Assembly (NCBI GenBank): GCA_903945195.1
Contig: CAJAUT010000009.1
Span: 23,231-87,230, forward strand
Source of the DNA: an uncultured bacterium
Lineage (GTDB): Bacteria; Patescibacteriota; Microgenomatia; UBA1400; UBA12108
Direction of reading: 5' to 3'
Length of the DNA stretch: 64,000 nt
Both the position numbers and the translations under genes were made by a program. Shown here in pieces: positions 7,278-42,281 of the stretch. The first letter of the stretch is position 1; the number at the start of each line of letters is the position of its first letter. Under the pieces are notes generated by a model. That model searched no databases, was not told the DNA's origin, and saw only the letters and a list, made by a program, of their open reading frames with translations.

Positions 7278-7359
7278 AAGGTCTGACCTGGTCTCCCGAT
7301 TGTATTTTGAAGTCGACTAAACACTCCCTTTGGTCGTCTCCTTAGCAGGTCAGACCTTT
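7278..7359. repeat. MITE-like palindromic repeat, family A (copy A1)
   Basis: Termini aaaggtctgacctggtctcc ... caggtcagaccttt are inverted repeats of each other; the shared core gaagtcgactaaaca occurs in 6 copies in the window. Confidence 0.8.
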
Positions 7360-8318
7360 AACACGGGGGGTGAGGGATCCAGTGGGTGGAAGAAGGCGCT
7401 ATTTATAGTGATGTATTCGCGAGTGAGTTTGGGTCGCATATAAAAGTATTGGAGATGAAAAAGTAAATATTCAATAGTATCCGATAAGGTCTGACCTGGT
7501 CTCCTGATTAACCCTTTAGGGTCTGACCTTCCCGCCTTTGAGTATGCGGGTTGGGCACATCCATCAAGGTCAGACCCTGTAATCACGTTTGACAAATATT
7601 TTTTGATCCAAGGATTGGCGGCAAGGAGAACGTCACGAGTATCTGAGGGATCGTAAACTGGGACAGCTTGAATAAGTTCGTAGGCTGTATAGATAGATTG
7701 CTTATGAGTTGGGAGCAGGTAGGAATCAGGTGTGAGATAAAGATTGAGACAAAGTTTGCCAGAATTATTGATGGAATGGGGAGTGCGGCGAAGACCTAGT
7801 AGAGTGGTGAGAATTGTTAGGATGAATCTGGTAGTCCAGAGTTTACCCTCTGCTGTAATAATCATGAAGTCGATATCAGAGTCGTTTTTTGAGTTATTCA
7901 TGGCAAGGGAACCTGTGAGATAGATTGCTTTGATAAATGGAGCGTGACTTATTTTTTTGGAAAGTGTTATGGCTCTTAATAGTTGAGGATTTGAAGATTT
8001 TAAATGATTGCTGCGACGAGCTACCAATGATTTTTTGCCAGGGAGATGATAATAATCTTGCGTTTGTTGAATCATTTTACTCTTGAGCATTAGCTGCAAA
8101 GTTCCGAACACTCGTTCTAAAGAACAAGGTTCGGAACTGATTAATCGCAAGTGAATTTCTGAGGCGGTGAGGGGGAAGCCGAAGTGATCTGAGTATTTAA
8201 TGGTTTTGATTATTGAAGTTCCGATGAGGTCTGTAATACCTTTAGGGTCTGACCTTCCCGCCTTTGAGTCTGCGGGTTGGGCACTTCCTTCAAGGTTAGA
8301 CCCTTTGGGAAACTTCAT
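7350..8318 (-). CDS. Pol-beta-like nucleotidyltransferase-domain protein; both ORF ends are repeat-derived
   Basis: Central GSLAMNNSKNDSDIDFMII is a GS...DxD nucleotidyltransferase fold motif. The N-terminal GSAQPADSKAGRSDPKG and the C-proximal GCAQPAYSKAGRSDPKGLIRRPGQTL are translations of family B/A repeats, so the true start is probably internal. Confidence 0.45.
   Translation of the reverse strand: MKFPKGSNLEGSAQPADSKAGRSDPKGITDLIGTSIIKTIKYSDHFGFPLTASEIHLRLISSEPCSLERVFGTLQLMLKSKMIQQTQDYYHLPGKKSLVARRSNHLKSSNPQLLRAITLSKKISHAPFIKAIYLTGSLAMNNSKNDSDIDFMIITAEGKLWTTRFILTILTTLLGLRRTPHSINNSGKLCLNLYLTPDSYLLPTHKQSIYTAYELIQAVPVYDPSDTRDVLLAANPWIKKYLSNVITGSDLDGCAQPAYSKAGRSDPKGLIRRPGQTLSDTIEYLLFHLQYFYMRPKLTREYITINSAFFHPLDPSPPVLKV
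7486..7578. repeat. Composite MITE: left half of family A fused to family B (copy B1)
   Basis: aaggtctgacctggtctcctgatt followed by agggtctgaccttcccgcctttgagtatgcgggttgggcacatccatcaaggtcagaccct. The family B core has an internal cccgc/gcggg stem. Confidence 0.75.
8099..8138. repeat. Short palindromic repeat, family C (divergent copy C1)
   Basis: aagttccgaacactcgttctaaagaacaaggttcggaact with termini aagttccgaac/gttcggaact; related to the copies at 12954 and 34776. Confidence 0.5.
8225..8304. repeat. MITE family B (copy B2) with a degenerate A-like left arm
   Basis: ccgatgaggtctgtaatacc + agggtctgaccttcccgcctttgagtctgcgggttgggcacttccttcaaggttagaccct; near-identical to B1 and B3. Confidence 0.75.
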
Positions 8319-9799
8319 TTTGCCTCGGGATATTTGAGCAGCAACTGTTTAACTCCCTCATCGAGTGGCTTGATGACGGCCGCGATTGTAGAGCCACCAT
8401 TGATACCGTTGATCGCGTCTTCATAATATTTACTAATGCCATCGTTGATGCCGTCGTCAAAAGTACGATCTGCCATATACCAAGATTTGTAGTTTGGGCC
8501 TTGGGAAACATAAGGACCTGCCAGTGGGTCATTGGCTAAGCTACTAGCTAGGCTGGTGAGTGAGTAGGGTTCACCGAGCGCGCGTATTTGAGAAGCCCCT
8601 GCATACATTTTTTGAAGAACTTCTGGAGTGCTTAGATATTTGATAAACTTCCAGGCTTCGGTTTGATTTTTGCTAGTTAGGGGGACTGCTTCTCCCCAGT
8701 AAGTGGCCCAGGCGAAATTGGCTGAAGGCAAGACAGGAGCTGGAGCTACTTTGAAATTTAGATCTGGATTGATGGCTTTGATTTCTGAGACTTGCCAGGA
8801 CGGGGCTAGGATCATGGCGACTGTACCCGTAGCAAAAGCATAGACAGAATTTGGCTGAGTAGCGTCCCATGATTTGTCTTGGGTAGAGATGATTGTGTAG
8901 AAAGTGAGGGCATCTTGGACGGCAGTTTCGCTAGGCTTTCCTGGATCTCCTGAGTTTTGCAGGATGAGTAGACCGAGGATGTCTGACCAATTATCTACAT
9001 TGTTTGTAGTACCTAGTGCAACCCCGGCCCTTTCTATGATTTTAGTTTCTGGATTGGTTTTGGTTAGATCAAATGCTAGTTTGCGCAAAGCGTTCCAATC
9101 CGAAGGAGGAGTAGCCCCCGATTCTTTCAAGATGTCTTCGTTGTACAACAGGGCCAGCCCGTCAATTTCTAAGGGAAGGCCATAGATCTTGCCACCACTT
9201 ACGAAGTTCTTTTGGACAATTGGATAATAGGAGCTTAGATCACTAACTTTTAAAATAGTGTCAGGAGCTGGTGATAAATCTTTTTTTAACATGGGAAGCC
9301 AAGTGTTGTGAATGCGGACAATGTCTGGGGCGTCAGCTTGAGTTCCAGCTGCAAGGAAGCGAGTGCGGTAGTTTTTTGGCGCTTGCATAGTGTAGTTGAT
9401 TTTGATGTTTGGATTTTTGGCTTCATAATCGGCTATCACACCCTGCATGACTGAACTGGGTTCCCATAATCCCCAATAATTGAGGGTGGTTACTATGGTT
9501 TTTTTGTTAAACATCGGGATGACCACCATGGCAAGAACTATCAAGACTACAATAGCTCCGAGTCCTATGACTACTGGGATAAGATTGCGGAAGGGCGAGG
9601 ATGATGGCGCTGCAACTGTAGTACTGGCTAATGAAGGAGCTGGTTGAACGGGTTCCTGAGAAGTTGGCGCTACATAAAGTGGGGGCGCTTCGTTTTTAAT
9701 GTCGGCAGTTCCCATTTCTTTGCCTTGTACTGACAAATCAATCGCGCCAGTAACTGGCGTACTACCGTAATCTTTGGTTGGATCAGGAAACTTTGGCAT
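8315..9799 (-). CDS. Extracellular solute-binding protein (ABC transporter SBP, family 1-like), membrane-anchored
   Basis: 494 aa with an N-terminal TM helix (IPVVIGLGAIVVLIVLAMVVI), a Pro-rich linker and a sugar-SBP-like body. No permease or ATPase gene is adjacent. Confidence 0.65.
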   Translation of the reverse strand: MPKFPDPTKDYGSTPVTGAIDLSVQGKEMGTADIKNEAPPLYVAPTSQEPVQPAPSLASTTVAAPSSSPFRNLIPVVIGLGAIVVLIVLAMVVIPMFNKKTIVTTLNYWGLWEPSSVMQGVIADYEAKNPNIKINYTMQAPKNYRTRFLAAGTQADAPDIVRIHNTWLPMLKKDLSPAPDTILKVSDLSSYYPIVQKNFVSGGKIYGLPLEIDGLALLYNEDILKESGATPPSDWNALRKLAFDLTKTNPETKIIERAGVALGTTNNVDNWSDILGLLILQNSGDPGKPSETAVQDALTFYTIISTQDKSWDATQPNSVYAFATGTVAMILAPSWQVSEIKAINPDLNFKVAPAPVLPSANFAWATYWGEAVPLTSKNQTEAWKFIKYLSTPEVLQKMYAGASQIRALGEPYSLTSLASSLANDPLAGPYVSQGPNYKSWYMADRTFDDGINDGISKYYEDAINGINGGSTIAAVIKPLDEGVKQLLLKYPEAK

Positions 9800-9805
9800 G
9801 GTACC

Positions 9806-11601: not shown

Positions 11602-13956
11602 ATGGACAGCAAATTTGACCACAAGATAGTAGAAAAAGATATTTATGAGGCTTGGGAGAAGTCTGGGGCGTTCCAGCCTAGCTTACAGCCTACAGCAAAC
11701 GGCATACAGCAAAGGCCATTCACGATAGTTTTGCCCCCACCAAATGCTTCTGGCAAGATGCACATGGGTAACGTACTCATGATCGCGATTGAAGACCTGA
11801 TGATCCGCTACCACCGCATGAAAGGCGACCCTACCCTTTGGATCCCAGGTACAGACCATGCAGGATTTGAGACTCAGATCACGTACGAACGCGAACTAAA
11901 GAAACAAGGTAAATCACGCTTTGAGTTTGATAGAGAAACGCTTTACCAAAATATCTGGGAGTTCGTACAAAGTAACAAATCTCAGATCGAGGGACAGATC
12001 CGCCAAATGGGAGCATCTGTTGACTGGAGTAGATACACATTTACACTAGATCCTCATGTTGTCTCGACTGTTTATTCTACTTTTGCCAAGATGCACAAGG
12101 AAGGACTAGTGTATAGGGACAACTACATGGTGAACTACTGCCCCAAGTGTGGCACTACTTTTGCTGACCTAGAAATAATGCACGAGGATAGAGTAGACAA
12201 GCTTTATTACATCAAATACAAAATGGTGGGTAGTGAAGATGGTGTGGTCGTGGCCACCGTGCGACCTGAGACCATCATGCTAGATACCCACATGGCCGTG
12301 CACCCGGATAATAAAAAGACTAAACATTTGATTGGTAAAAAAGTAATCAATCCATTATCTCTAAAAGAGATGGAGATCATAGCCGACTCATTTGTAGACC
12401 CAGAATTTGGGACAGGTATAGTCAAACTGACCCCAGCTCATGACAAAAATGATTATGAGGCGGCGAAGAAACATAATTTACCTGTCATCATAGGGATCTC
12501 TATGGACGGCAAGATGACAAGTGAAGCCGGTAAGTGGGCTGGTAAATCGGTCTTTACAGCGCGTAAAGAAGTGGTTGAAGAACTGCAGATACTTGGTGCG
12601 ATAGATAAAATCAACGAGAAATACGAACACGCTGTGACTGTGTGTTACAAAGGCGGACATGATATAGAACCTATGATCCTACCCAACTGGTTTGTGAAAG
12701 TAGAGTCTCTAAAGAAACCGGCCCTTGAAGCGGTAGAGAGCGGCAAAGTAAAGATATATCCAGAATGGCGCAAGATCACCTACACCAAGTGGATGGAGGA
12801 GATGCATGACTGGCCGATCTCACGACAAGTTGTGTGGGGCATCCGAATACCAGTATGGTACAAGGTCGGACAATCGGAAAATTCAGAAGGTCAGAATGTC
12901 GGAAAGTCAGAAAATCAGAATATTCAGATTACTTTTTTGGCGAAAAATCACAAAAGTTCCGACCACTCGCCTAAAATCACGCAAGGGTCGGAACTGTCAC
13001 ACAAGCCGGTGGTTGTTTCAGGTCGAGTTGGTGAACTGCTACAAAATTATAGTTTTGAGGAAATAAGAGATGGACTGCAAACACTGATCGCACCAGCTGG
13101 ATGTGAGTCTATCGTGAATGAGACGTGCCCAGGGGACGGGTACCTACAAGAAACCGATACCTTTGATACTTGGTTCTCTAGTGGTCACTGGCCGCTAGTA
13201 ACTCTGAAATATCCAGAATCTGAAGACTTTAAGAAATTTTATCCAACGTCTGTACTTGAGACTGGGTGGGAGATCATCCGTTTCTGGGTGTCGCGCATGA
13301 TCATGTTTGGGATATATCTGACAGGTGAGCCTCCATTTGAATATGTCTACCTCCACGGCATGGTGCGGGCGGCTGATGGCAAAAAAATGAGCAAGTCTCT
13401 AGGCAATGTGATAAATCCTGACGAGTACATGGAGCAGTACGGGGTGGATGCCCTGCGCATGGGACTGATTGCAGGTACTGCGACAGGTAAAGATTTTTCT
13501 TTCCCTAAAGACAAGATCACGGCATATCGCAACTTTGGGAACAAGCTCTGGAATATGGCAAGATTTTTCTTGATGATGCAAGAAAAATCTGGAATCACAA
13601 ATCTTAAATTCTCCAATTCTCAAATGGAGGGATTAACTGCGCGAGATAATGAAATTATAAAAATGTTAAATGAGACGATAAATAGTGTGGACAAGTTACT
13701 TGGCGAGTTTAGATTTGCAGAAGCTGGTGACACCATCTACCACTTTATGTGGGATGAGGTGGCAGCGAAATATCTCGAAGAGGTAAAGACGCGCGAAGAC
13801 TTGGGAGTGGCACTATCTGTACTACGACACGTTATCTTAACTGGGCTAAAGCTACTACACCCCTTTATGCCGTTTGTGACTGAGGCGATATGGAAAGAAA
13901 TGCCTAGGAAGCATGATGAGATGCTAATTATTAGTAAGTGGCCTGAAGTTAAGTAA
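11602..13956 (+). CDS. valS: Valyl-tRNA synthetase, with an in-frame repeat/low-complexity insertion
   Basis: HIGH-region PPPNASGKMHMGNVL, KMSKS motif, DTWFSSGHWP typical of ValRS; 784 aa. It includes a family C palindrome plus a SENSEGQNVGKSENQ low-complexity stretch at about 12870..12995. Confidence 0.88.
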   Translation: MDSKFDHKIVEKDIYEAWEKSGAFQPSLQPTANGIQQRPFTIVLPPPNASGKMHMGNVLMIAIEDLMIRYHRMKGDPTLWIPGTDHAGFETQITYERELKKQGKSRFEFDRETLYQNIWEFVQSNKSQIEGQIRQMGASVDWSRYTFTLDPHVVSTVYSTFAKMHKEGLVYRDNYMVNYCPKCGTTFADLEIMHEDRVDKLYYIKYKMVGSEDGVVVATVRPETIMLDTHMAVHPDNKKTKHLIGKKVINPLSLKEMEIIADSFVDPEFGTGIVKLTPAHDKNDYEAAKKHNLPVIIGISMDGKMTSEAGKWAGKSVFTARKEVVEELQILGAIDKINEKYEHAVTVCYKGGHDIEPMILPNWFVKVESLKKPALEAVESGKVKIYPEWRKITYTKWMEEMHDWPISRQVVWGIRIPVWYKVGQSENSEGQNVGKSENQNIQITFLAKNHKSSDHSPKITQGSELSHKPVVVSGRVGELLQNYSFEEIRDGLQTLIAPAGCESIVNETCPGDGYLQETDTFDTWFSSGHWPLVTLKYPESEDFKKFYPTSVLETGWEIIRFWVSRMIMFGIYLTGEPPFEYVYLHGMVRAADGKKMSKSLGNVINPDEYMEQYGVDALRMGLIAGTATGKDFSFPKDKITAYRNFGNKLWNMARFFLMMQEKSGITNLKFSNSQMEGLTARDNEIIKMLNETINSVDKLLGEFRFAEAGDTIYHFMWDEVAAKYLEEVKTREDLGVALSVLRHVILTGLKLLHPFMPFVTEAIWKEMPRKHDEMLIISKWPEVK
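12954..12995. repeat. Short palindromic repeat, family C (copy C2), in-frame inside valS
   Basis: aagttccgaccactcgcctaaaatcacgcaagggtcggaact, 42 bp (14 codons); near-identical to copy C3 at 34776..34817. Confidence 0.65.
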
Positions 13957-14173: not shown

Positions 14174-15202
14174 CTACCTCACCTTTGCTAGGATGTAATA
14201 TGTAGAGGGACCAGAGCCTATTTTTTCTAGAATTTTTAATTTTAGTAATCTAGATATGTGAGATTGAGCTGTCCGTTTAGGAATATATAGAATGTCAGCT
14301 ACGTCAGAACTCGTGATTTTATCTAGTGTTACTACAAAGTCTATAATTTTAAGATCTCCGACAGATAGCTTGCGCTCATGTAATGAACCAGTCCCTGCAA
14401 GTAGAGAATTGATTGATTCTTGGAGATGTAGAGCTTCAACCCAAAATCCTTTTACAAAATATGATATCCAAGATGTGAGATCCTCGCGACCATTTTGAAG
14501 TGCTTCATAATATGATCTACGATCTAGGTTGTAGTATTCTTCAAGTACTAGTCCGCGACGAAAGTCCCATCCTGACTGATAAAGAGAGAGGAGTGTGAGT
14601 AGTCTGCCTGTACGACCATTACCGTCGACAAATGGGTGAATAGATTCAAACTCAAAATGGAGGATGGCGGCACGAATAACTGGGTGAATATGAGGATTGT
14701 TGTTGTGCCACTGTAGCAGTTTTGTGACTAGAGATTTAACCTGCTTGGGTTCTGGTGGAGTATAGACTATTTGGTCTGGCAATCCGGGAGCTGAATTAAC
14801 TATATATACTGGAGCTGTGCGAAACATGCCTGCTTTACTATCAGGTAGTAGTTTTTGCATAGTGATTTGATGAATTTGCAGAAGATCGGCTAAATCAAGT
14901 GTATTTTTTTTTGATAATGATTCAACTTCTGATATAGCTAAAAGATAATTTTCGACCTCTAGTCGATCTTTTGCCGGGGCGAGAAGTGACTGCTTGCTTG
15001 CAATCTTCTCAACGTCTGGCTCAGATAGAGTATTGCCCTCGATGCTAGTACTGCTATGTGCCATTTTGATAATGGCGCGGCGACGGAAAATAGTTTCGCG
15101 TACTGGTAATATCTTGGCTTGCACGATTTTACCCCTAATTTCGGCTATGTCTGATAACCAGGTTAATATTTCATCTGTAATCTGGTACTTCGGATTATAC
15201 AT
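14174..15202 (-). CDS. Fic/DOC family protein with a C-terminal winged-HTH
   Basis: Canonical Fic motif HPFVDGNGRTGRLL. C-terminal DLKIIDFVV...SHISRLLKLKILEK is wHTH-like. Contains an A9 tract in its coding sequence. Confidence 0.85.
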   Translation of the reverse strand: MYNPKYQITDEILTWLSDIAEIRGKIVQAKILPVRETIFRRRAIIKMAHSSTSIEGNTLSEPDVEKIASKQSLLAPAKDRLEVENYLLAISEVESLSKKNTLDLADLLQIHQITMQKLLPDSKAGMFRTAPVYIVNSAPGLPDQIVYTPPEPKQVKSLVTKLLQWHNNNPHIHPVIRAAILHFEFESIHPFVDGNGRTGRLLTLLSLYQSGWDFRRGLVLEEYYNLDRRSYYEALQNGREDLTSWISYFVKGFWVEALHLQESINSLLAGTGSLHERKLSVGDLKIIDFVVTLDKITSSDVADILYIPKRTAQSHISRLLKLKILEKIGSGPSTYYILAKVR

Positions 15203-15255
15203 AGGGTGATTATATCACATATCGTGCAATAATCGCGCAGGTTTATGTGCAATAA

Positions 15256-16149
15256 TTATTTGGCTATTTCCGCCAGCAAGTATTCATTTGGACCCCAAGA
15301 TGCAATCAATTCTTTGGTGATGGGGACAGCAATTTTCCAGAGAGACTGATGGATCTGCGCGATAGAGTCTGCTAGATTTTGTGATCGGATCTTAAGCCCC
15401 CAGACCTCATTACCTTTAACTGAGACTATCCAGGTGCGATTACCCTTAACCCGAATATTGAGAGATAATCCCTGCATTTCAAATGGCAGATAACGATACT
15501 GCACTCTATCTAGATAATGAGGATTGCGCTCGACCTGGTAGCTAAGCACATGCTTGCTCCAAGGAGTGATGGGGGTCAGATTGTATTCCATTGATTTGCC
15601 CTTTGACCAGAGCTTGATACCCTTGTCGATACCCTTGTTCATTGCTTTACTGCCTGTGGCGTCCATTGGAACTTGATAATCAAAAACATAAATATCCTGG
15701 TCAACATCATCATAATCAAACATGACCTTGTTGGCGCCTTCCATCCCGGGGAAAAACTGGAAGTCGGCATTTGTCTCGTCTTTTAAATATTCTTTTTTTA
15801 GATAAGGCAAAATCTCGACTATGTCTACTTCCTGCTTTACCAGGCTTTCGCGTTTTTTCCAGAGAATTTCGCGTAAAGCGCTTGGATTTCTGGCTTTTAC
15901 TTTTGTTTGCTGCTTCATGAGACCGGTGGCGGACTCTAGCTCGATGAGACCTTTGAGTGCGAGATCTGTGAGCACGGCATAGACAGTCGTGCGAGGCACC
16001 CCCGTCTCTTTGGCTATGGCAAAGGGAGAGGTTTCACCTAGACGAAGTGCGGACTGATAGACTGTTGACTCGTTTTCTGAGAGCCCAAATTCTTTGAGTA
16101 CTTGAGTAGATCTTTTGATAATATCCATCCTTCGACTCCTTGCAGTCAC
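15256..16149 (-). CDS. TrmB-like transcriptional regulator (paralog 1 of 3)
   Basis: N-terminal wHTH (ESTVYQSALRLGETSPFAIAKETGVPRTTVYAVLTDLALKGLIE) plus a C-terminal domain shared with the ORFs at 21855 and 27649 (GxEGxxK ... IHQSLWKIA). Confidence 0.6.
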   Translation of the reverse strand: MTARSRRMDIIKRSTQVLKEFGLSENESTVYQSALRLGETSPFAIAKETGVPRTTVYAVLTDLALKGLIELESATGLMKQQTKVKARNPSALREILWKKRESLVKQEVDIVEILPYLKKEYLKDETNADFQFFPGMEGANKVMFDYDDVDQDIYVFDYQVPMDATGSKAMNKGIDKGIKLWSKGKSMEYNLTPITPWSKHVLSYQVERNPHYLDRVQYRYLPFEMQGLSLNIRVKGNRTWIVSVKGNEVWGLKIRSQNLADSIAQIHQSLWKIAVPITKELIASWGPNEYLLAEIAK

Positions 16150-21841: not shown

Positions 21842-21854
21842 GTTAGATCTGAAC

Positions 21855-30019: not shown

Positions 30020-30679
30020 CTATGATTTGGCTTCAGGAGCAGCGGCTTCTGGTTTGGCTTCACCTTCTGCAGGAGCAGCCTCACCTTCAGCAACTGGAGC
30101 GGCTTCGACAACCTCTTCTTTGGCTGGCTCTTGGACGGTGGCGATGAGTTCTTCATCTTCGATCATGAGAGTCACCTTGGAGCGATCTATCTTTAGATCT
30201 TTAGCGTGGATGCCGTCGCCTAGGGCTTTGAGGACTGAGATGTCGACTTCGATAGAGTCTGGGAGATCGGTTGGGAGAGCTTCGACTTCGACTTCGTTCT
30301 TCATCATGGCTAGGATGAGGCCGCCAGACACAGCTTCGGATTCACCCACGGCGTGTAGAGGTACGGTCGCGGTGGTCTTTTGCTTCAAGTCAACTTCGTG
30401 AAAATCAACGTGGAGCATTTTGCCAAAGACTGGGTCTTGAGCGTAACCAGAAACTAGAACTGGATGAGCTTTGTCGTCACCTTTGACTTTGAGGTGGATG
30501 AGACCAGTTTCACCAGCTTTGCGCATGGTGTCTAGGAGGATATTGCTCTCGAGTTCGATGGCAATGGAGTCCATTTTTTTGCCGAAGATATTGGCTGGGA
30601 CTAGACCTTTATTTCTGAGCTGTTTGGTCTTGCGGCCAAATAAGGTTCTTTTTGCTGCGTTTAGTTCAAAAGTTGTCAT
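30020..30679 (-). CDS. rplY: Ribosomal protein L25/general stress protein Ctc
   Basis: L25/Ctc N-terminal and beta-barrel domains with a low-complexity Ala/Glu/Pro C-terminal tail; 219 aa. Confidence 0.8.
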   Translation of the reverse strand: MTTFELNAAKRTLFGRKTKQLRNKGLVPANIFGKKMDSIAIELESNILLDTMRKAGETGLIHLKVKGDDKAHPVLVSGYAQDPVFGKMLHVDFHEVDLKQKTTATVPLHAVGESEAVSGGLILAMMKNEVEVEALPTDLPDSIEVDISVLKALGDGIHAKDLKIDRSKVTLMIEDEELIATVQEPAKEEVVEAAPVAEGEAAPAEGEAKPEAAAPEAKS

Positions 30680-30725
30680 AGGTCCTCCAAGTTATGTATT
30701 GTGGCGTGATTATACCAGATTCGAG

Positions 30726-33512: not shown

Positions 33513-33731
33513 ACATCAATCCTAACACGTTAAGACATCTAGAATGAAGACAAATACTAATGTTTTTACGTTTTTATTGTGCGTTTCTTCCAGGCCTGTA
33601 TATATGTTTTTCCCTCTGTTTGTGTTCTTACGTTTTTTTGCACGTTATTGTTTGATACGAAAAATCCACGATTTAAGCCTTAAAAATGCCATATTTGTTT
33701 AGCTGGAAATCAAATTAAAAATTTGGGAAAT

Positions 33732-34187
33732 TTACTGTTGTGCATCTAACGCTTCGTTTACAAGTCCGTCGGCAACTGAGTTACCCTCTCTATAGGTATG
33801 GGAAATCTCATATTTTTTTAGCGTGGCCAGAAGCTTTTTTACTTCTAGATATTTTGGCAACAAACCAGGGTTTTTCACTTTAAACAGCCCTTTTATTTGG
33901 TTTACGATGAGGAGTGAGTCCATTTTTATGACCAGTTCGGCTTCTGGCTCGTTGTCTACCACCCATTTCACTCCGTGCAATAGTGCTTCGTACTCTGCAA
34001 TATTATTGGTGGTAATGCCGATATATTTACCGCATTTTTCCAGAATCATTCCTGCACCAGAGGTCGCTGAGGCTCCCACTGTGGCAGGCAGGCCCGCACC
34101 AGAGGTAATATCTTGGATAACATAACCATAAGCGGCAGGGCCTGGATTGCCGCGTGAGCCCCCGTCAGTGTTTAAGAGTAGTTTCAT
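33732..34187 (-). CDS. rnhA: Ribonuclease HI
   Basis: TDGGSRGNPGPAAYGYV and the DEDD catalytic pattern; 151 aa. Confidence 0.85.
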   Translation of the reverse strand: MKLLLNTDGGSRGNPGPAAYGYVIQDITSGAGLPATVGASATSGAGMILEKCGKYIGITTNNIAEYEALLHGVKWVVDNEPEAELVIKMDSLLIVNQIKGLFKVKNPGLLPKYLEVKKLLATLKKYEISHTYREGNSVADGLVNEALDAQQ

Positions 34188-35397
34188 GGGAAAAGTATAA
34201 CAGAGCGAGGACTAGAAATCCCTCGGTTAGTCCGGTATTTATGGCTGCGGCAATGGCTCCATAAGAGGGGATTAATAGCAGATTGAGGTTGGCGTTGAGA
34301 ACTGCTCCAGAGATATAGATCCCTAAAACTAGCTTGTCTTTTTTTTGACCGATGAGATTCCACATCAGTGGGGCGGTGATGTAGAAGAGGGGAAGGGAGA
34401 GAGATAAAATGCGCAGAACATTTGAGGAGAGATCCATGCCGGGTCGGACTAGATTGACCAGGGGAGAGGAGATCCAAAGTAGAGCAGCAACAAAAATACC
34501 AATTATGGCGAGAGTTTTAGTTGTTTGAGAGATTAGTTTTGCGCGGTATTTTTGCTGAGACTCCTGCATAGAGATGGGATATATCACGTTCATGACAAAC
34601 ACAGGAAGAACTAAGATGACATCAAAAATGCGATATGCAAAGCCATACTGACCAACTTCGCTCGAGAGGCGATAGACTCCTAGGATTATGGTGTCGATTT
34701 TGCTGGCTATCACACTGGCGATAATGATTAGGCCCAGAGTGAGAGAGCGACGAATAAGTAATAGAATGGGCTGCAAAGTTCCGATCACTCGCCTAAAATC
34801 GCGCAAGGATCGGAACTCAAGCGACAAAAGACAAATTGAACAAATAGCCATGGTGAGGTAGCCCAAGGTGTTGGCTAAAACCAGATAGGGGAGAGTGGGG
34901 GAGTAGCGCAAATAATATAGCGTCAGACCTGTCCCAACCAGAGAACCTATTACCACTGAGATTGTGGATTTCCAGTATGAGAGCTTGTATTGAAACCAAG
35001 AGTTGCCAGAGGTATAAAGACCCTGAAAAATGATGGCTAAGCTGCCCAACCAAAAGACTGACTTTACCTCCGAGGAATAACCTCCTGGCAAAGCTAAAAT
35101 AACCAAATTCAAAACCCCAATAACCAAGAGGGAAAGGAATATCCTGGCTAAGATAATTTTATAAACATGCTGCTGCATTTCTGAGTCGTTTTTGGAGGAG
35201 CGAATGCCTTCTGCATTTAAGCCAAAATCGATAGCTGTAAAGCCAACCGCCACCAAGACTAAAATTCTAGTTAAATCCCCATAAAGCTCGAGCCCTGCCA
35301 GGCGGATAGTGAAGTAGGTGGTAATGAGGGTGAGGCCAGCGCCAAAGAACTTGGCTACTAGCTGAGCGAAAGTGTTGCTAGCGATTTTTTTGAGCAT
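34165..35397 (-). CDS. MOP-superfamily polysaccharide flippase (Wzx/MurJ-like)
   Basis: 410 aa, about 12 TMs, polysaccharide-biosynthesis-protein-like N-terminus; contains family C palindrome copy C3 in-frame. Confidence 0.6.
   Translation of the reverse strand: MLKKIASNTFAQLVAKFFGAGLTLITTYFTIRLAGLELYGDLTRILVLVAVGFTAIDFGLNAEGIRSSKNDSEMQQHVYKIILARIFLSLLVIGVLNLVILALPGGYSSEVKSVFWLGSLAIIFQGLYTSGNSWFQYKLSYWKSTISVVIGSLVGTGLTLYYLRYSPTLPYLVLANTLGYLTMAICSICLLSLEFRSLRDFRRVIGTLQPILLLIRRSLTLGLIIIASVIASKIDTIILGVYRLSSEVGQYGFAYRIFDVILVLPVFVMNVIYPISMQESQQKYRAKLISQTTKTLAIIGIFVAALLWISSPLVNLVRPGMDLSSNVLRILSLSLPLFYITAPLMWNLIGQKKDKLVLGIYISGAVLNANLNLLLIPSYGAIAAAINTGLTEGFLVLALLYFSHETTLKH
34776..34817. repeat. Short palindromic repeat, family C (copy C3), in-frame inside the flippase gene
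   Basis: aagttccgatcactcgcctaaaatcgcgcaaggatcggaact, 42 bp; differs from C2 at about 3 positions. Confidence 0.65.
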
Positions 35398-36865
35398 GAA
35401 TGTAGTTTAGCACTGGGGATGACGTTGATAGATATAGCATAAGAATAAACATCCCCTGGGGGGAGGTGAGGAGGTAATGGTCGAAGAGGAGAAGGGGAAG
35501 GATGGGGAAGAATACTTTGAGGGTCTGACCCGGTCTCCAGATTGTATTTTGAAGTCGACTAAACATCTTGGCTGATAGCCAGGATTTCCTTAGCGGGTCA
35601 GACCCTGAGAGCAGGGCGAAAACTCCAAAAATGCCAAACCAAGATAAGAATAATGTGAAAGAGTTGTGGTCGGGCTGTAGTAGGCGGACTGAGGAATCGA
35701 CGCTGGGATAGGTAGAAATACTACTTTGGGCTCCGGTGCCAAAGACTGGAAATGAGCGAGCTACAGAAAAGGAGAGATTCTGCAAAGTGATGCGTCCTGA
35801 GCTTGAGAGATCACTGCGGGGAGGAATGATTAGAGATGGTAGATAGTAGGTCGTAGATAAAATGACTACGAAGTATATGAGTGAATATTTAATATTTTTA
35901 ATTAAATAGAAGGGAATGATGATCCCAAATAGAGAGATGGCGGCTGAGCGAGACTGAGTAAGGATGACAAGTAACACCACTGGAATCAGGAGTACCCATA
36001 GGGTCTGACCCGGTCTCCAGATTGTATTTTGAAGTCGACTAAACATCTTGGCTATTGGCCATGATTTCCTTAGCGGGTCAGACCCTTTGGCTGCAGGGTA
36101 CAACTGTAGAATTATTAGCAAACTAATTACGGCGTAACCTGCGAGAACGTTGGGGTGGGAAAAGGTGCCATAGGCTCTAAGTACGACTTGATCCATAAAT
36201 GAGCCTAGGGCGATGCCAGGAGAGCCCACAGATACCATCCGCTCGCCTAGGTAGTACATAATCCCGCCGACATAGTGACCTAGGTAGACTTGGGCCACTG
36301 CGAGGGTGGTTTGGAAGAAAAGGGAGAGGGTGAAGGCGAGAGGAATCACATAGGTTGCAACTGTAGGGTCTGACCCGGTCTCACGGCTTGTTTTTGAGGT
36401 TCGACTAAACATCTTGGCCGTTGGCCAGGATCTCCTTAGCGGGTCAGACCCTTGGGGCGAGAACGTGGCTGCAAAGAACAAAAAATACAAAAGGAAGTGG
36501 AGAGACCAGGAGAGAGTGGCGAGGGGATTCTGAGAGTAGAGGAGGTTGACTAATAATATGGGAGAAATCGCACCTATAGGGTCTGACCTTCCCGCCTTTG
36601 AGTCTGCGGGTTGGGCTCTTCCTTTAAGGTCAGACCCTTTAATCGCAAAGAACAAGATAATTAACAAGTCTAGGAAGTAAAGGGTGGGGGAGAGATAGTC
36701 GATGCGAATGCCGTAGACCAGGGTAGAACTAGGCCAGAAATGGAGACCAAACTGAGTGGCACCAAAAAAGATGATAAGGACGGCTAAATACTTAGACAGT
36801 TTTGAGAGAGATGAAGAGCCTTCTGTCTTGACCGTGGCCGTCTGAGTAACTCGTGAATTCTGCAT
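35378..36865 (-). CDS. O-antigen ligase-like (Wzy_C/WaaL family) membrane protein carrying four in-frame MITE insertions
   Basis: Polytopic membrane ORF of 495 aa. The repeat-derived segments GRAQPADSKAGRSDPIG (family B) and 3x GSDPLRKSW..AKMFSR..RPGQTL (family A) interrupt otherwise hydrophobic helices. Ligase call is by architecture and the AQVYLGHYVGG...SHPN region; the start overlaps jag, so the true start is probably downstream. Confidence 0.45.
   Translation of the reverse strand: MQNSRVTQTATVKTEGSSSLSKLSKYLAVLIIFFGATQFGLHFWPSSTLVYGIRIDYLSPTLYFLDLLIILFFAIKGSDLKGRAQPADSKAGRSDPIGAISPILLVNLLYSQNPLATLSWSLHFLLYFLFFAATFSPQGSDPLRRSWPTAKMFSRTSKTSRETGSDPTVATYVIPLAFTLSLFFQTTLAVAQVYLGHYVGGIMYYLGERMVSVGSPGIALGSFMDQVVLRAYGTFSHPNVLAGYAVISLLIILQLYPAAKGSDPLRKSWPIAKMFSRLQNTIWRPGQTLWVLLIPVVLLVILTQSRSAAISLFGIIIPFYLIKNIKYSLIYFVVILSTTYYLPSLIIPPRSDLSSSGRITLQNLSFSVARSFPVFGTGAQSSISTYPSVDSSVRLLQPDHNSFTLFLSWFGIFGVFALLSGSDPLRKSWLSAKMFSRLQNTIWRPGQTLKVFFPILPLLLFDHYLLTSPQGMFILMLYLSTSSPVLNYIHAQKNR
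35520..35606. repeat. MITE family A (copy A3), inside the ligase ORF
   Basis: gggtctgacccggtctccagattgtattttgaagtcgactaaacatcttggctgatagccaggatttccttagcgggtcagaccct. Confidence 0.8.
36000..36086. repeat. MITE family A (copy A4), inside the ligase ORF
   Basis: Near-identical to A3 (about 95 percent identity). Confidence 0.8.
36365..36452. repeat. MITE family A (copy A5, divergent left arm), inside the ligase ORF
   Basis: agggtctgacccggtctcacggcttgtttttgaggttcgactaaacatcttggccgttggccaggatctccttagcgggtcagaccct. Confidence 0.75.
36578..36638. repeat. MITE family B (copy B3), inside the ligase ORF
   Basis: agggtctgaccttcccgcctttgagtctgcgggttgggctcttcctttaaggtcagaccct. Confidence 0.8.
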
Positions 36866-37244
36866 CGTCTTGAATCATCAAGTGAACTTGACGACGCTCG
36901 GTCGAAGATAGAGGAGGGAGGACACAAGGAGCACCGGTTGATTTAACTTGGTTTTTAGCATTTTCGACCATGGTCTCTAGGGTCCCCATGCGACGCTGCC
37001 TATAACCAGCTACATCTAAGAGAACATGTTTGTGGACTTCACCGCGGTTTAGCATGAGAGAAATGATCAGCTGAAGTGAGTCTAGGGTAGAGGCAAAACG
37101 ACCGATCAGGCGTCCAGCATCTAGTTCGTCCATTTGGACGGTGATTTTGACTAGTTCGTCGGTTTCTTCGATCTTGATTTGGTCGCTTGTTATATCAAAA
37201 AGAGCTAGTAGCTCTTCTATTTTTTTCATGTCTTCTGGATTCAT
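36792..37244 (-). CDS. khpB: Jag/KhpB RNA-binding protein (KH + R3H)
   Basis: 150 aa with a KH-like core and C-terminal R3H (STERRQVHLMIQDD); immediately downstream of yidC as in the conserved rnpA-yidC-jag cluster. Confidence 0.8.
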   Translation of the reverse strand: MNPEDMKKIEELLALFDITSDQIKIEETDELVKITVQMDELDAGRLIGRFASTLDSLQLIISLMLNRGEVHKHVLLDVAGYRQRRMGTLETMVENAKNQVKSTGAPCVLPPLSSTERRQVHLMIQDDAEFTSYSDGHGQDRRLFISLKTV

Positions 37245-37245
37245 A

Positions 37246-37983
37246 TTATTTTCCCTTCTTCAAAATTTTAAATTTATAAGCATAGGTAAGTAGGGCGCCA
37301 GGGCCAGAAACTAGGAGTTGTTGGACTAGGGAGAACGCAGTGGTGATAACCCAGTAGAGAGCGAGACCTGAAGGGAATTGAATTGAGAAAATGATGGTCA
37401 TAATAGGCATCATAAAGACCATCTGTTGCTGCATGGTGGTGGCCATCTCGGCTACATCTTCTTTTTGCTCTTTGGTACCAGGTCTTTTTTCTGGTTCGTT
37501 TTCGACAGCTGGGAGAATGGTCAAAGACATTACAAACTGTAAGATGCCGGCTAGGACTGGGAGGATGTAGGTAGTATCTTTTGATTTGAGATCCCAGAGG
37601 AAAAAGGCGGAGTTTATGTCGCCCATGCCATTGCCATTTAGAGTGGCCATAAATACCTGGTAAAGGGCAATCAAAACAACAAACTGAGCAATAAATGGCA
37701 AACAGCCGGCGGCTGGGTTTACATTGTGAGTCTTATAAAACTCTAACTGTTTTTGCTGGAAGAGCTTGGCATCATGGCCATGCTTTTTCTTTAAGGAATC
37801 TAACTCTGGCTTGAGTTGAGCCATTTTTTTGGCTGATTTAAGCTGGGGGAGAGTGAAGGGGATCAAAATGCCGCGGACTACGAGGGTAAGCAAGATGATT
37901 GCAAAGCCTAGGTTGTGCCCGGTGATTTGGTACAGCCACAGCAGAGAATTTAAGATGGGTTGATAAATATAGTTGTGATACAT
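37246..37983 (-). CDS. yidC: Membrane protein insertase YidC (short Gram-positive-type)
   Basis: YIYQPILNSLLWLYQ, conserved AAGCLP and the 5-TM core; 245 aa. Confidence 0.9.
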   Translation of the reverse strand: MYHNYIYQPILNSLLWLYQITGHNLGFAIILLTLVVRGILIPFTLPQLKSAKKMAQLKPELDSLKKKHGHDAKLFQQKQLEFYKTHNVNPAAGCLPFIAQFVVLIALYQVFMATLNGNGMGDINSAFFLWDLKSKDTTYILPVLAGILQFVMSLTILPAVENEPEKRPGTKEQKEDVAEMATTMQQQMVFMMPIMTIIFSIQFPSGLALYWVITTAFSLVQQLLVSGPGALLTYAYKFKILKKGK

Positions 37984-38025
37984 ATATTGAGTTAAAAGTT
38001 TTTCAAGCTCGTCAAGTTTATAAAG

Positions 38026-38235
38026 TTATGGAATAGGGTCAAATCCGCCCTGAGACCATGGATGACATTTTAACAGTCTTTTGATAGATAACCAAGCGCC
38101 ATAGAAGAGGCCGTGCTTGGTGAGGGCTTGTTTGGCGTACAAGGAACAGGTAGGGGAGTAGCGACAACGACCCGCGGAAAGGCCCATGTTGCTGGCAATA
38201 GCTTTAAAATAAACCAGGATTTTGTGATAGTTCAT
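38026..38235 (-). CDS. yidD: Membrane protein insertion efficiency factor YidD
   Basis: [15 protein letters not shown]...[13 protein letters not shown], the signature YidD/hemolytic-domain motifs; 69 aa. Confidence 0.85.
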
Positions 38236-38557
38236 TTTTGATTAGATCCTCTGAAATTTTACCTTTTATTAACGCCATTGGTTTAAACATCACAATGCAA
38301 TCTAGATTCTTATCTTTGATCATTTTCCAGACTTGGTCATAAACTAGTCTTTTAAAAGAGTTACGAGCCACGGCGCGTTTATTTACCTTGACTGGGACTA
38401 TTACCGAGAGGCGAGAATCAAACTCCCGGAGTTTGATGTTGCCTGAACTCCGGGAGTTGAAGAGAATCCGGAGATGGGGGGTAGTAAATTGTTTTGCTTT
38501 TGCACGAAATTCTAGAAACTGAGTGCGCGTTGGAAATTTGTTGGATTTGGAAATCAT
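38204..38557 (-). CDS. rnpA: RNase P protein component, with a probable short in-frame palindrome-derived insertion
   Basis: 117 aa; RnpA-like RNR motif region ([15 protein letters not shown]). The family D palindrome tcaaactcccggagtttga plus a second aactccgggagtt half encode [15 protein letters not shown] inside the protein. Confidence 0.75.
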
Positions 38558-38586
38558 TTAGATATTATACGATGGAATATGATTTT

Positions 38587-39213
38587 TTATGCTGGAAGAC
38601 TGTTAAATGCTTGGTGGATTGCGGTCCCCACGTATTTTGCAGCAGAATTTTCGAGTTGTCCCGTCACGGAGTTGGGCCAGCTGGAGGGGGCCGAAAGGTG
38701 AATATTGCGCGGGCGAAGTAATCCTGGGACATTATTTTTATCGGTTTTCTTTCTAGGTTCATCTGAACATTCTATGTCCATGGTTAATCCAGTTTTTTCA
38801 TTGATTACCACAGTTAGTATTATTGAGCCGCCCGGGGATCTTTCTTTTGCGGCTTGTGCCAAAAATTGGAATTTCTCTGGACCACCCATCAACTGAATTG
38901 CTATGCCAAGCATTGATTGTTCATCTTGGGCCGTTTCGTCACTAACCTCCTGAGTGAGGATTGTGTAGCCCCATTCTTTTTTTTCTCGAGTGACTTTTTG
39001 CGTAAGATCTCCATACTCAGATGTATTACCAACATGTTTCAGGAGTTCCTCGTCCGAAACGGGCGCTCCAGATTCTTGACCGGCCCTCAATATGTCTCCG
39101 ATTTTAGACCTAGCGTCTGATGATGCAAATACATCTACCCAATGTGAATTTAATGCTTGCGTAAACGCAAGGGTTGCCCCATTTTGCAAATCTTCTGTCT
39201 TTTTTTCCATCAT
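38587..39213 (-). CDS. Hypothetical protein inserted between rpmH and rnpA
   Basis: 208-aa ORF with no recognisable motif or TM; co-directional, 30 bp upstream of rnpA and 48 bp downstream of rpmH. Confidence 0.4.
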   Translation of the reverse strand: MMEKKTEDLQNGATLAFTQALNSHWVDVFASSDARSKIGDILRAGQESGAPVSDEELLKHVGNTSEYGDLTQKVTREKKEWGYTILTQEVSDETAQDEQSMLGIAIQLMGGPEKFQFLAQAAKERSPGGSIILTVVINEKTGLTMDIECSDEPRKKTDKNNVPGLLRPRNIHLSAPSSWPNSVTGQLENSAAKYVGTAIHQAFNSLPA

Positions 39214-39261
39214 TATGAATTATTTATAGCACAATTTGAGCTTCGACCACTTGGAAAATAT

Positions 39262-39399: not shown

Positions 39400-39477
39400 T
39401 TCTGGATTTTAACACAAGAAGAGTGGATTTGTCACGGTGGGAGATAGTTTAGATATATTGTCTAGTGTGGAAAAGTT

Positions 39478-40845
39478 GTGGATAATGAGCTCATGGACAT
39501 CATATCAACTTGGAAGGCTGTACTTGGAGAACTAGAGGTTTCTATCTCCCCTGTATATTTTCCCACTTGGATCAAGCCACTATCAATTGCTTCGATAGAA
39601 AAATTGAGCGAAGAATCTCAGCTAGTAACTCTCCTTTGCCCGTCGGCTTACCACCAGACAATGGCTACTCAAAGATACCAGGGCCAAATCCAACGAAGTC
39701 TAGAGAGAATTACAAATTTAAAAACTGAACTGGCATATATTGTGGGGAAGGATGCTTCCACAAGTTTAGCGGCAGCACCTTCACCACTTTTTGATCCCAC
39801 TCCGCCTGCGGCTACGCTTGGGACAAGTGGACACCACAACCTAAACCCCAAGCTGACTTTTGAGACATACGTGGTTGGAGGATCCAATAATTTTGCTTAT
39901 GCGGCAGCACAGGGAGCGGCCAAGTCTCCGGGCACGAGACACAACCCACTCTTTATATACGGGGGAGTGGGACTTGGGAAAACCCACCTGATGCAGGCGA
40001 TAGGGCATGCAATATACAAAGACCATCCCGACTGGAATATCATGTATATCTCGGCAGAGACTTTTGGAAGCGATTTAATCGCGAGCTTACAAAATAAAAA
40101 GACTGCAGCTTTTAAAAAGAAGTATCGAGCTCCTAATGTGCTTTTAATTGATGATATCCAGTTTATCGCGGGCAAAGAATATACCCAAGAAGAGTTTTTT
40201 CACACATTTAATGAGTTGTATATGTCTGAGAGACAGATTGTGCTTACATCCGATCGTCCTCCACAAGAGATCCCAAAGATCGAGGAGAGACTGTCGTCTA
40301 GGTTTATGGGCGGACTTATGGTGGATATACAATCTCCCGATTTTGAGACTCGGGTGGCCATCCTTACACAAAAATGTAAGGCCTTAAATATTGAGGTACC
40401 CAGCGAAGTGATTGGTCTTATGGCTGAGAAAACTACTACCAACGTCAGAGAGCTAGAGGGGGCTCTACAGGGGATATTGACCAAGTCACTACCTAGTGGA
40501 GGCGAAATAAACAGCGATATGGTGCGCGAGTATTTTGGGGCTGAACATGAAAGGCGGAGCCAGAGAATCAAGCCAAATACGGTGATAAACAAGACAGCTT
40601 CATATTTTTCCTTCAAGCCAGCCGAACTTGTGAGCTCGAGTCGCAAGGCCCCGCTTACCAATGCCAGGCACACTGCCATGTATTTGCTTTATAAAGAACT
40701 GCATCTGCCATATGAGCAGGTAGGTAGACTATTTGGTGGACGAGACCATACAACTATTATCCATGCCGTTGAGAAAATTGAGGAAAAAATAAAGACCGAC
40801 CCAGAAATGGCAAAGATTATAGCGGATATAAAGCACGATTTATGA
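39478..40845 (+). CDS. dnaA: Chromosomal replication initiator DnaA
   Basis: AAA+ Walker A GGVGLGKTHL, sensor motifs and a C-terminal DNA-binding domain; 455 aa. The GTG start lies within a tgtggataa DnaA box, and an in-frame ATG at 39493 is an alternative start. Confidence 0.95.
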   Translation: MDNELMDIISTWKAVLGELEVSISPVYFPTWIKPLSIASIEKLSEESQLVTLLCPSAYHQTMATQRYQGQIQRSLERITNLKTELAYIVGKDASTSLAAAPSPLFDPTPPAATLGTSGHHNLNPKLTFETYVVGGSNNFAYAAAQGAAKSPGTRHNPLFIYGGVGLGKTHLMQAIGHAIYKDHPDWNIMYISAETFGSDLIASLQNKKTAAFKKKYRAPNVLLIDDIQFIAGKEYTQEEFFHTFNELYMSERQIVLTSDRPPQEIPKIEERLSSRFMGGLMVDIQSPDFETRVAILTQKCKALNIEVPSEVIGLMAEKTTTNVRELEGALQGILTKSLPSGGEINSDMVREYFGAEHERRSQRIKPNTVINKTASYFSFKPAELVSSSRKAPLTNARHTAMYLLYKELHLPYEQVGRLFGGRDHTTIIHAVEKIEEKIKTDPEMAKIIADIKHDL

Positions 40846-41087: not shown

Positions 41088-42185
41088 ATGAAAATAGAAG
41101 TTTTGCAAGAACAGCTCGTAGCCGGATTTAATATAGTGGGGAGAGCTGTGGCAAGTAGAGCTCAGCTACCCGTACTTTCTCACATCCTGATAGAGGCTAA
41201 AAATGAAGGGTTAGTATTGTCTGCGACAGACCTAGAGATAGGAATCAAAATAAAGGTGTCTGCAAAAGTGATAGAGCCAGGAGTGGTAGCGGTACCAGCC
41301 AAGATGTTTGGGGAGTTTTTGGCATCACTTAATCCTGGAAAGATAGAACTTAAGTCTGAAGGAGAATCTCTATCTTTGAAGGCACCTGGGTATAACGGGA
41401 AATTCCAGACTATAAATGCAGAAGAATTTCCTTTGATCCCAGAACTTTCCACAGAAGCCGAGATTTGTACTTTAGAAGCCAAGGCCTTGTCCACTGCCGT
41501 ATCTCAAGTCGTGTTTGCCAGCGCCAAAGATAGTTTACGCCCAGTGCTGACGGGCGTGCTCTGGGAGTTTTTGAAGAAAAAGGTGAGACTGGTAGCGACT
41601 GATGGGTTTAGACTGGCAGTGGAAGAGATCTCTGTCGACACGAAGACTGAGCTGACAAGTCTACTTGTCCCATCTAGAGTGGTGATGGAAGTGGTGAGAC
41701 TGGCTGGGGAAGAAAAAATCATAGTTGGACACTTACCAGCGACTAATCAGATTTATTTTGTGGTGGGTGAGACTCAGATAGTGTCTCAGCTATTGTCTGG
41801 TAATTTCCCGGACTATAACAAGATTTTGCCAAAGGAATTTACGACTGAAATCAAAGTGAATAAAGACGAGCTTTTGCAGGCTATAAAGGCGACTCATATC
41901 TTTGCTAGAGATAACTCTAATATGGTGAAGTGGCAAGTAGCTGAAGAAAAGCTAGTACTCTTGTCGAGTTCTCCAGAGCGAGGGGAATGTAGAGTAGAGG
42001 TGCCAATTACTCTGACTGGAGATGATATTGAGATAATATTCAACGCCAAGTATGTCCTTGATTTTTTGGGAATTGTCGGAGGGGATACACTGTGGATAGG
42101 ACTAGGAGGGAAGCTGTCTCCTGGAATGATTAAAGATGTCGCGCGTGAAAACGGGCAGTATGTGGTAATGCCGATAAATGCGTAA
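41088..42185 (+). CDS. dnaN: DNA polymerase III beta sliding clamp
   Basis: 365 aa from MKIEVLQEQL, typical three-domain beta clamp (the track start at 41061 gives 374 aa). Confidence 0.9.
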   Translation: MKIEVLQEQLVAGFNIVGRAVASRAQLPVLSHILIEAKNEGLVLSATDLEIGIKIKVSAKVIEPGVVAVPAKMFGEFLASLNPGKIELKSEGESLSLKAPGYNGKFQTINAEEFPLIPELSTEAEICTLEAKALSTAVSQVVFASAKDSLRPVLTGVLWEFLKKKVRLVATDGFRLAVEEISVDTKTELTSLLVPSRVVMEVVRLAGEEKIIVGHLPATNQIYFVVGETQIVSQLLSGNFPDYNKILPKEFTTEIKVNKDELLQAIKATHIFARDNSNMVKWQVAEEKLVLLSSSPERGECRVEVPITLTGDDIEIIFNAKYVLDFLGIVGGDTLWIGLGGKLSPGMIKDVARENGQYVVMPINA

Positions 42186-42194
42186 ATCTCCATT

Positions 42195-42281
42195 AAGATC
42201 TGACCCGGTCTCCTGATTGTGTTTTGAAGTCGACTAAACATCTTGGCCTTTGGCCAGGATTTCCTTAGCGGGTCAGACCTT
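42195..42281. repeat. MITE family A (copy A6), intergenic between dnaN and virB4
   Basis: agatctgacccggtctcctgattgtgttttgaagtcgactaaacatcttggcctttggccaggatttccttagcgggtcagacctt. The track ORF 41894..42298 is its translation. Confidence 0.8.

Follow-up and report, generated by a model that had tools for sequence, protein, structure and literature searches.

Short palindromic repeats with shared termini, between genes and in frame inside them, in a Microgenomates bacterium

Introduction

Selfish DNA residing in frame inside genes is regarded as a peculiarity of Rickettsia and a few other lineages. [quoted passage not shown] We consider it likely that A and B are part of a larger set of selfish palindromic repeats in Microgenomates that resemble the Rickettsia palindromic elements (RPEs) and are translated where this is tolerated.

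According to the summary of RPE-1 to RPE-10 (Ogata et al. 2000) in PMC10969869, these elements are palindromic, fall into several families and lie in frame in unrelated, often essential genes. They are roughly 100–150 nt long and have no known transposase or evident target-site duplication. Like RPEs, the elements of the window are short and palindromic, belong to several families of repeats in a small genome, have many in-frame copies that encode a family-specific peptide, and have no known transposase or evident duplication. They differ in that the host phylum is unrelated and in that they are shorter, 57–88 nt against roughly 100–150 nt. They differ further in that several families have identical 11–13-nt termini and replace each other at one loop. 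Because the hosts are distant, sequence homology to RPE-1 to RPE-10 is unlikely, and we liken the elements to RPEs by behaviour, not by sequence.

A second group for comparison is formed by the repetitive extragenic palindromes (REPs) and REPINs tagged with GTAG or CGTC, among them REPs found inside genes of Opitutus terrae and R. conorii (Di Nocera et al. 2013, PMC3733652). Intragenic REP units encode 20–30 aa, and head-to-head REP dimers form long hairpins; CGTC families occur without a dedicated transposase, and for GTAG REPs mobilisation through single-stranded hairpins by REP-associated tyrosine transposases (RAYTs) has been proposed (PMC3733652). The elements described here are likewise hairpin-forming, have no known dedicated transposase and, where intragenic, encode 20–30 aa. 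However, only about 5 of 67 copies have a GTAG directly at the terminus; in 8 of 67, mostly at one orthologous site, a CGTC is found 4 nt beyond it. In addition, the terminal motif GGGTC-W-GACCC alone cannot form a REP-type stem-loop, the intragenic share is large whereas REPs are predominantly extragenic, and no RAYT (Y1 HUH transposase) gene is present among the 39 open reading frames (ORFs) of the window. A full-text literature search, with subscription journals outside its reach, found no earlier description of such elements in CPR/Patescibacteria, nor of their terminal motif.

Copies of families A and B in the window

Repeat searches and nhmmer profile searches of the window recover six copies of family A (81–88 nt) and three of family B (61 nt each), all at the positions where the preliminary description had placed them. 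In addition to these nine full copies the profile search finds one 27-nt fragment of an A left arm and no further match in the window. The termini AGGGTCTGACC...GGTCAGACCCT are common to A and B, and the shared ggtctgacc/ggtcagacc ends, the conserved A core and the internal B stem CCCGC..GCGGG are as first described. The 9-mer GGTCTGACC occurs 17 times in the window compared to 0.22 expected, a count as high as this being found in none of 100 shuffles. All A and B copies lie on the + strand, and six of the nine full copies (A3, A4, A5, B1, B2 and B3) are inside ORFs:

7278–7358, +: A1, a short A variant of 81 nt; ORF 7350–8318 stops in its right terminus (AAG GTC TGA, read on the - strand).
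7486–7512, +: A left-arm fragment fused to B1 (composite), in frame in ORF 7350–8318 as ..LIRRPGQTL..
7518–7578, +: B1, in frame within the nucleotidyltransferase ORF 7350–8318 (GSDLDGCAQPAYSKAGRSDP).
8225–8241, +: degenerate A left-arm remnant upstream of B2, a composite as at 7486–7517 minus about 15 nt.
8244–8304, +: B2, in frame at the N-terminus of ORF 7350–8318 (GSNLEGSAQPADSKAGRSDP); right terminus mutated (GGTTAGACC).
29896–29982, +: A2, intergenic, between the converging ORF 29415–29888 (+) and rplY 30020–30679 (-); all six frames closed.
35520–35606, +: A3, in loop 4 of the O-antigen-ligase-family ORF 35378–36865, read in frame as frame -2 (GSDPLRKSWLSAKMFSRLQNTIWRPGQTL).
36000–36086, +: A4, in frame in loop 3 of ORF 35378–36865.
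36365–36452, +: A5, in frame in loop 2 of ORF 35378–36865; its subfamily is 88 nt long and shifted by +1 internally (..AKMFSRTSKTSRETGSDP).
36578–36638, +: B3, in frame in loop 1 of ORF 35378–36865 (GSDLKGRAQPADSKAGRSDP).
42195–42281, +: A6, between dnaN (+) and the TraG/VirB4-like ORF 42273–44210 (-), with its right terminus as the stop of that ORF; kept in the near-identical strain L160 described below.

Both loci that had been read as fusions of an A left arm with B are indeed composite. At 7486–7578, 24 nt identical to the A2 left arm are followed by B1; the case at 8225–8304 is weaker but real, and is a version of the same composite with an internal deletion of about 15 nt. An assembly artefact was rejected, because the elements recur across independent JGI, NCBI, ENA and Logan assemblies.

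Reading frames and host genes

Canonical A elements contain stop codons in five of the six frames. Only frame -2 is open, where the element reads GSDPLRKSW..AKMFSRLQNTIWRPGQTL, and every intragenic A copy is read in this single open frame. The open frames of the elements, which are 57–88 nt long, encode peptides of only 20–29 aa. Two genes of the window carry the intragenic A and B copies:

35378–36865, -: membrane protein of the O-antigen-ligase family (PF04932), 495 aa, with A3, A4, A5 and B3 in frame in four inter-helix loops.
7350–8318, -: nucleotidyltransferase of the Pol-beta type, 322 aa, which holds B2, B1 with the A fragment and, at 8101–8137, a copy of a third family, C; it ends at the TGA in the A1 terminus.

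The terminal stop of the TraG/VirB4-like ORF 42273–44210 (-) is likewise a TGA, that of A6. A2 is of a subfamily in which a stop closes the otherwise open frame; the sole other member of that subfamily (L009b) has no spanning ORF either. The preliminary description was right that copies occur both between genes (A2, A6) and inside ORFs (A3–A5, B1–B3), the latter mentioned only in passing, and it missed that the intragenic copies are in frame and apparently translated.

It had also counted only two families, whereas C and a further family, E, are present in the window as well, and D and others in relatives. Family C (GTTCCGAYC..N..GRTCGGAAC, about 40 nt) has three copies in the window compared to none expected, all of them in frame, and one of the E copies is read in frame as SGITNLKFSNSQ. 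The gene for leucyl-tRNA synthetase (LeuRS) holds one in-frame copy of each:

8101–8137: family C, in the nucleotidyltransferase.
12956–12994: family C, in LeuRS, read on the + strand.
34778–34816: family C, in a Polysacc_synt flippase, read on the - strand.
13581–13625: family E (..AATCACAAATCTTAAATTCTCCAATTCTCAAAT..), in LeuRS.
44903–44947: family E.
5308–5380 and 5730–5805 of L160 (reverse complement): family E.

Since intragenic copies keep strictly to open frames and essential host genes are intact, we infer that these copies are translated as 20–30 extra hydrophilic residues. If so, the predicted junction-spanning tryptic peptides would include SWPIAK, MFSR and LQNTIWRPGQTLWVLLIPVVLLVILTQSR. 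Removal at the RNA level as a mini-intron was rejected because excision before translation would make the strict use of the only stop-free frame needless. Inteins were rejected too: the elements are below intein size, show no splicing motifs and form palindromes as DNA. The 495-aa ORF and dnaN, as delimited here, have no matching encoding-contig record. The GC skew is positive throughout the window; gene orientation together with the single open frame largely accounts for the uniform + orientation of the elements.

Distribution in other genomes

The elements are not confined to the window; copies are present in several CPR genomes and in metagenomes (loci compared with the window are numbered L). 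In a scan of a genome collection with the A right end, true A copies were found solely in metagenome-assembled genomes (MAGs) of the Microgenomates/Woesebacteria type, the rest of the matches being chance 17-mers. A metagenome scan for the shared termini with 35–65 nt between them returned at least 120 stretches. Among the matches listed, contigs of 42–53% GC carry A (67–84 nt between the terminal 9-mers), B (54–67 nt) and D (about 60 nt), and at least 40 open codons on both sides surround 8 of 24 A, 14 of 31 B and 1 of 12 D copies. In these low-GC loci the intragenic copies are read in a uniform direction, antisense to the defined + orientation, in 7 of 8 cases for A and 14 of 14 for B. Hosts outside the window include methionyl-tRNA formyltransferase (Fmt), MnmA and an ATP-grasp/CoA-ligase pair, among others.

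These counts of intragenic copies were made from DNA loci and not from peptide searches. A 31-aa A peptide, a query too short for a library of 1.8 billion proteins, retrieved only two irrelevant eukaryotic repeat proteins from it, and a homologue search with concatenated A and B peptides gave no candidates. A scan of viral contigs found no element.

Four A-bearing contigs (L001, L002, L007 and L028) were deposited as MAGs of "uncultured Pseudomonadales". One of them, L002, is syntenic with the dnaA–dnaN region of the window at 74% identity. These taxonomic labels, or the binning, are probably wrong.

Empty sites and turnover at protein loops

The 495-aa O-antigen-ligase-family protein has hundreds of CPR homologues of 360–490 aa. 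In an alignment of 30 sequences the four elements fall into four short gaps between hydrophobic helices, at which many homologues are empty; in a codon alignment with the DNA of four orthologues, all four insert sites are empty in P0018/L158. Among 120 homologues, repeat peptides of at least 10 recognizable families are present in 55 and absent from 65. A-type peptides occupy the four loops in 4, 4, 8 and 3 cases, and other homologues have different short repeat peptides there. At loop 2, A5 of the window is matched in L010, L156 and L159 by family C (GTTCCGAYC...GRTCGGAAC), after the same CCCCAR codons. At loop 3, one identical junction (GCCGTCAGAG followed directly by GGTCTGACC) is occupied by A in L001 and L010, by a short A in L040 and by B in L098. 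The nucleotidyltransferase is a real, conserved CPR family (exact protein P0123). Homologues of 270–290 aa have no inserts. In others, three places (the N-terminus, one loop and the C-terminus) are occupied by B, by short A or by further families, and several homologues end in ..KV* (AAG GTC TGA) within an element terminus. As orthologues without these segments exist, the segments are insertions and not ancestral.

In L001, L010, L026, L040, L059, L098 and L123 the left terminus of A, B and D copies is preceded by a conserved extension of 15 nt, AACGYGCCGTCAGAG (..QRAVR). Besides the O-antigen ligase, it occurs in contexts that are unrelated or non-coding, and L156 has RAVR without an element. 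The extension may belong to a longer unit, may be a preferred target resembling the GGTCAGACC end, or may be a footprint of excision.

A near-identical strain, L160 (GCA_965094495.1), is 99.2–99.6% identical to the window over 30200–35506 and 36107–38717. It retains A5, B3, A6 and the family C copy. At the sites of A3 and A4, in contrast, it has E-related elements encoding KFENLRIYDLR, each with 10–25 nt of diverged flank on either side; identity over the 349 nt that separate the two sites is 97.4%. The O-antigen-ligase gene is intact in both strains, with 495 aa in the window and 461 aa in L160. Presence or absence of copies thus differs between near-identical strains, a polymorphism that the preliminary description had proposed to look for. 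The difference looks like one mosaic tract of about 600 bp gained by recombination rather than like a transposition event; the loops thus turn over quickly, and homologous recombination accounts for at least some of the elements' spread from strain to strain.

A diverged patch of similar appearance lies in dnaA, where about 90 nt (window positions ~39695–39790) are about 69% identical to L160 in an otherwise 97–100% identical gene. The patch replaces the linker STSLAAAPS by SIDTAQKPA, contains no repeat element and looks like a short recombination tract.

These comparisons raise the question of whether transposition is needed at all. The elements might be loop cassettes spread by homologous recombination or gene conversion only, with hypervariable loops drawing on a shared pool of repeats. 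The mosaic tract with its diverged flanks would fit this, as would the element-free patch in dnaA and the replacement of families with shared termini at an identical junction. However, the same families occur in unrelated genes (O-antigen ligase and nucleotidyltransferase; Fmt, MnmA and the ATP-grasp/CoA-ligase pair; C and E in LeuRS) and in intergenic DNA, so that some non-homologous insertion must have occurred. We therefore regard spread by recombination only as improbable.

Hairpin structure and conservation

Every A element folds into one long hairpin, with predicted energies of -31 to -40 kcal/mol (RNA parameters) and z-scores of -3.4 to -6.0, the two strands being about equally stable. 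Aligned, 26 distinct A copies taken from the window and from other genomes show a 13-bp terminal stem (AGGGTCTGACCYG / CRGGTCAGACCCT) that is invariant as a stem, three conserved unpaired blocks (GGTCTC, TCGACTAAACA and TCCTTAGC) and two internal segments of variable sequence and length. Of the 13 terminal pairs, three have changed on both sides with pairing kept (G-C/A-T in 16:10 copies, T-A/C-G in 24:2 and T-A/C-G in 16:7), and the pair at columns 2/88 is unbroken in all 26 copies. The 13-bp stem is conserved in 26 B copies as well. B has the same outer stem around an internal hairpin that varies in sequence yet stays paired (CCCGCC..GCGGG, CCGCGC..GCGCGG, CCCGACC..GGTCGGG), and a conserved block, TTGGGCACTTCCTTYAAGG. 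Each terminus is also nearly palindromic by itself (GGGTC-W-GACCC).

The elements are better conserved than their surroundings. Between the window and the syntenic L010, A4 is identical at 83 of 87 positions (95%) and B3 at 61 of 65 (94%), together 144/152, compared to 822/1139 (72%) in flanking coding sequence (binomial p about 1e-12). In 13 canonical 87-nt A copies the variable columns are spread 10:12:11 over the codon positions, and pairwise codon differences comprise 469 nonsynonymous and 121 synonymous changes. This even spread and the 469:121 ratio imply that conservation acts on the nucleotide sequence and not on the peptide.

Conservation of this kind could also be expected if the elements were functional nucleic-acid structures on whose nucleotide sequence selection acts. 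They might stabilise mRNA, mark processing sites, terminate transcription or bind proteins as hairpins, with frame compatibility as a side constraint. In keeping with such a function, the elements are far more conserved than host coding sequence, combine stable folds and covarying stems with the conserved unpaired blocks GGTCTC, TCGACTAAACA and TCCTTAGC, and, for A2 and A6, are placed where converging genes end. Yet Rfam, self-cleaving ribozymes included, gives no match at the gathering score over the window and only noise at E<=10 over 35450–36700. Neither A2 nor A6 is followed by a T tract, and neither site resembles a terminator, which leaves the terminator role once proposed for these two copies unsupported. 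Furthermore, positions relative to genes are inconsistent, many orthologues have no element or an unrelated family at the same site, and in a near-identical strain A is swapped for E at two sites with the gene intact. A structural function is thus a poor candidate as the main explanation.

Mode of movement

Bacterial MITEs such as Correia elements (CREE), ERIC, RUP and Nezha resemble the elements described here in that they are small, have terminal inverted repeats and occur in many copies. Correia elements have a TA target-site duplication. Copies inside genes and in frame are occasional among bacterial MITEs, another point of likeness (PMC10969869). The MITE label of the preliminary description holds in part: the elements are repeated, short (57–88 nt), without a transposase gene of their own, bounded by terminal inverted repeats, dispersed and polymorphic. 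Two features that define MITEs were nevertheless looked for and not found. No direct repeat of 2 bp or more flanks any of about 50 A and B copies, so that no target-site duplication is visible there, and a Pfam scan of the 39 ORFs of the window finds no transposase, recombinase or mobilising enzyme. The flanks are instead asymmetric, the element usually being followed by TA (..GGTCAGACCCTA) in the host reading direction with no counterpart opposite, and intergenic copies behave likewise.

Classical MITEs would be deletion derivatives of an insertion sequence (IS) with GGTCTGACC terminal inverted repeats, moved by cut-and-paste by a DDE transposase. The perfect 11–13-bp terminal inverted repeats, the small size, the many copies in several genomes and the composite and truncated copies agree with this, and two or more families with shared termini would be expected of one common transposase. 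Against it stand, besides the missing direct repeats and transposase, the lack of a parent IS or of any ORF or longer element bounded by these termini in about 1 Mb of loci, and the absence of any blastn match to A3 in 72,556 plasmids or 50,697 phages. The two termini also covary to stay paired, whereas DDE recognition of separate ends needs no such pairing. A classical MITE origin is accordingly unlikely. The terminus also resembles the Tn3-family inverted repeat (GGGGTCTGAC...); a 5-bp duplication is absent, and the resemblance was set aside.

Covarying ends, a hairpin, the lack of a duplication and the reuse of sites together fit REP/RAYT-like movement, or replacement guided by the termini, better than DDE cut-and-paste. 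We tentatively propose that the elements insert without target-site duplication by a process that recognizes a hairpin or single-stranded DNA, in the style of REP/RAYT (IS200/IS605-like) systems, and that the shared termini let families replace each other at one site. This is a possible route and somewhat short of an even chance. A wider and more speculative extension, which we hold to be doubtful, would be an unrecognized superfamily of hairpin-ended mobile DNA with the terminus GGGTC-W-GACCC that also bounds unrelated repeats in high-GC bacteria. A putative enzyme would move the elements and reuse occupied sites, and cassette-like exchange at one codon would remodel the loops of CPR proteins, those of essential enzymes included.

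The reading that we favour, that of selfish RPE-like repeats, would then work as follows. Each element is a single hairpin, in which a 13-bp terminal stem encloses one or two internal hairpins that vary, along with short unpaired blocks that are conserved. It would reach new sites by means of a putative enzyme supplied in trans and would spread between strains through homologous recombination. Copies would persist in two settings, either between genes or, inside genes, where the stop-free frame is used (by landing or through small indels) in a tolerant loop or terminus. Such an intragenic copy would be transcribed and translated, adding 20–30 hydrophilic residues to the protein. The elements may still be mobile.

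Several points weigh against this reading. The missing mobilising enzyme and the missing longer element with these termini, noted above for MITEs, count against selfish repeats as well. No clean pair of filled and empty sites with identical flanks was obtained and the tract in L160 resembles recombination, so recent transposition is not demonstrated. The conservation of the elements could instead come from a function under selection. Translation is suggested by the reading frames, and an AlphaFold2 model of the host protein (30 sequences; mean predicted local distance difference test score, pLDDT, 58.8) is too poor to confirm placement in surface loops.

If selfish palindromic repeats are the correct explanation, the presence of several unrelated families in free-living CPR bacteria with very small genomes would mean that the phenomenon recurs in reduced genomes. 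It would account for many unexplained insertions or length differences of 20–30 residues in CPR proteins and for some spurious gene calls. The elements could serve as natural markers for strain-level population genetics of uncultured CPR lineages. They would also offer a tractable case of hairpin-repeat movement without a visible transposase, with near-identical copies across species, covarying stems and different families at one junction.

Further observations

Among the matches of the metagenome scan that were listed, repeats that have the same GGGTCWGACCC termini but are otherwise unrelated, often nested, are found on contigs of 58–73% GC. Examples within L036–L155, from soil and water metagenomes, are L065 (JAANMX010000181.1), L073, L110 and L089. 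Often they take the form of tight hairpins (GGGTCAGACCCTTGGGTCTGACCC) or of nested arrays; 5.4 kb can hold as many as 17 copies of the motif. They are far commoner than chance for a 22-base pattern.

Relative to L160, the window has an insertion of about 510 bp between rnpA and rpmH, which overlaps an ORF without Pfam match. The load of toxin and defence genes, two Fic/DOC pairs and an AbiEii-type toxin, is notable for a small genome. Other features of the window are:

14174–16149 and 20012–22661: two pairs of Fic/DOC and TrmB-like genes.
23572–24318: AbiEii-type nucleotidyltransferase toxin.
38417–38437 and 61162–61182: two copies of a palindromic 21-nt sequence (ATCAAACTCCSGGAGTTTGAT), perfectly complementary and 22.7 kb apart.
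38587–39213, -: ORF of 208 aa without Pfam match, overlapped by the insertion at ~38735–39245.
42273–57062: type IV secretion-like cluster (TraG/VirB4-like ATPase, TraC-like and PrgI-like proteins), which also holds large ORFs of 504–1116 aa without Pfam match.
57336–59437: six small ORFs of 99–123 aa, four of which contain a periodic repeat of about 360 nt (repeat family D4).

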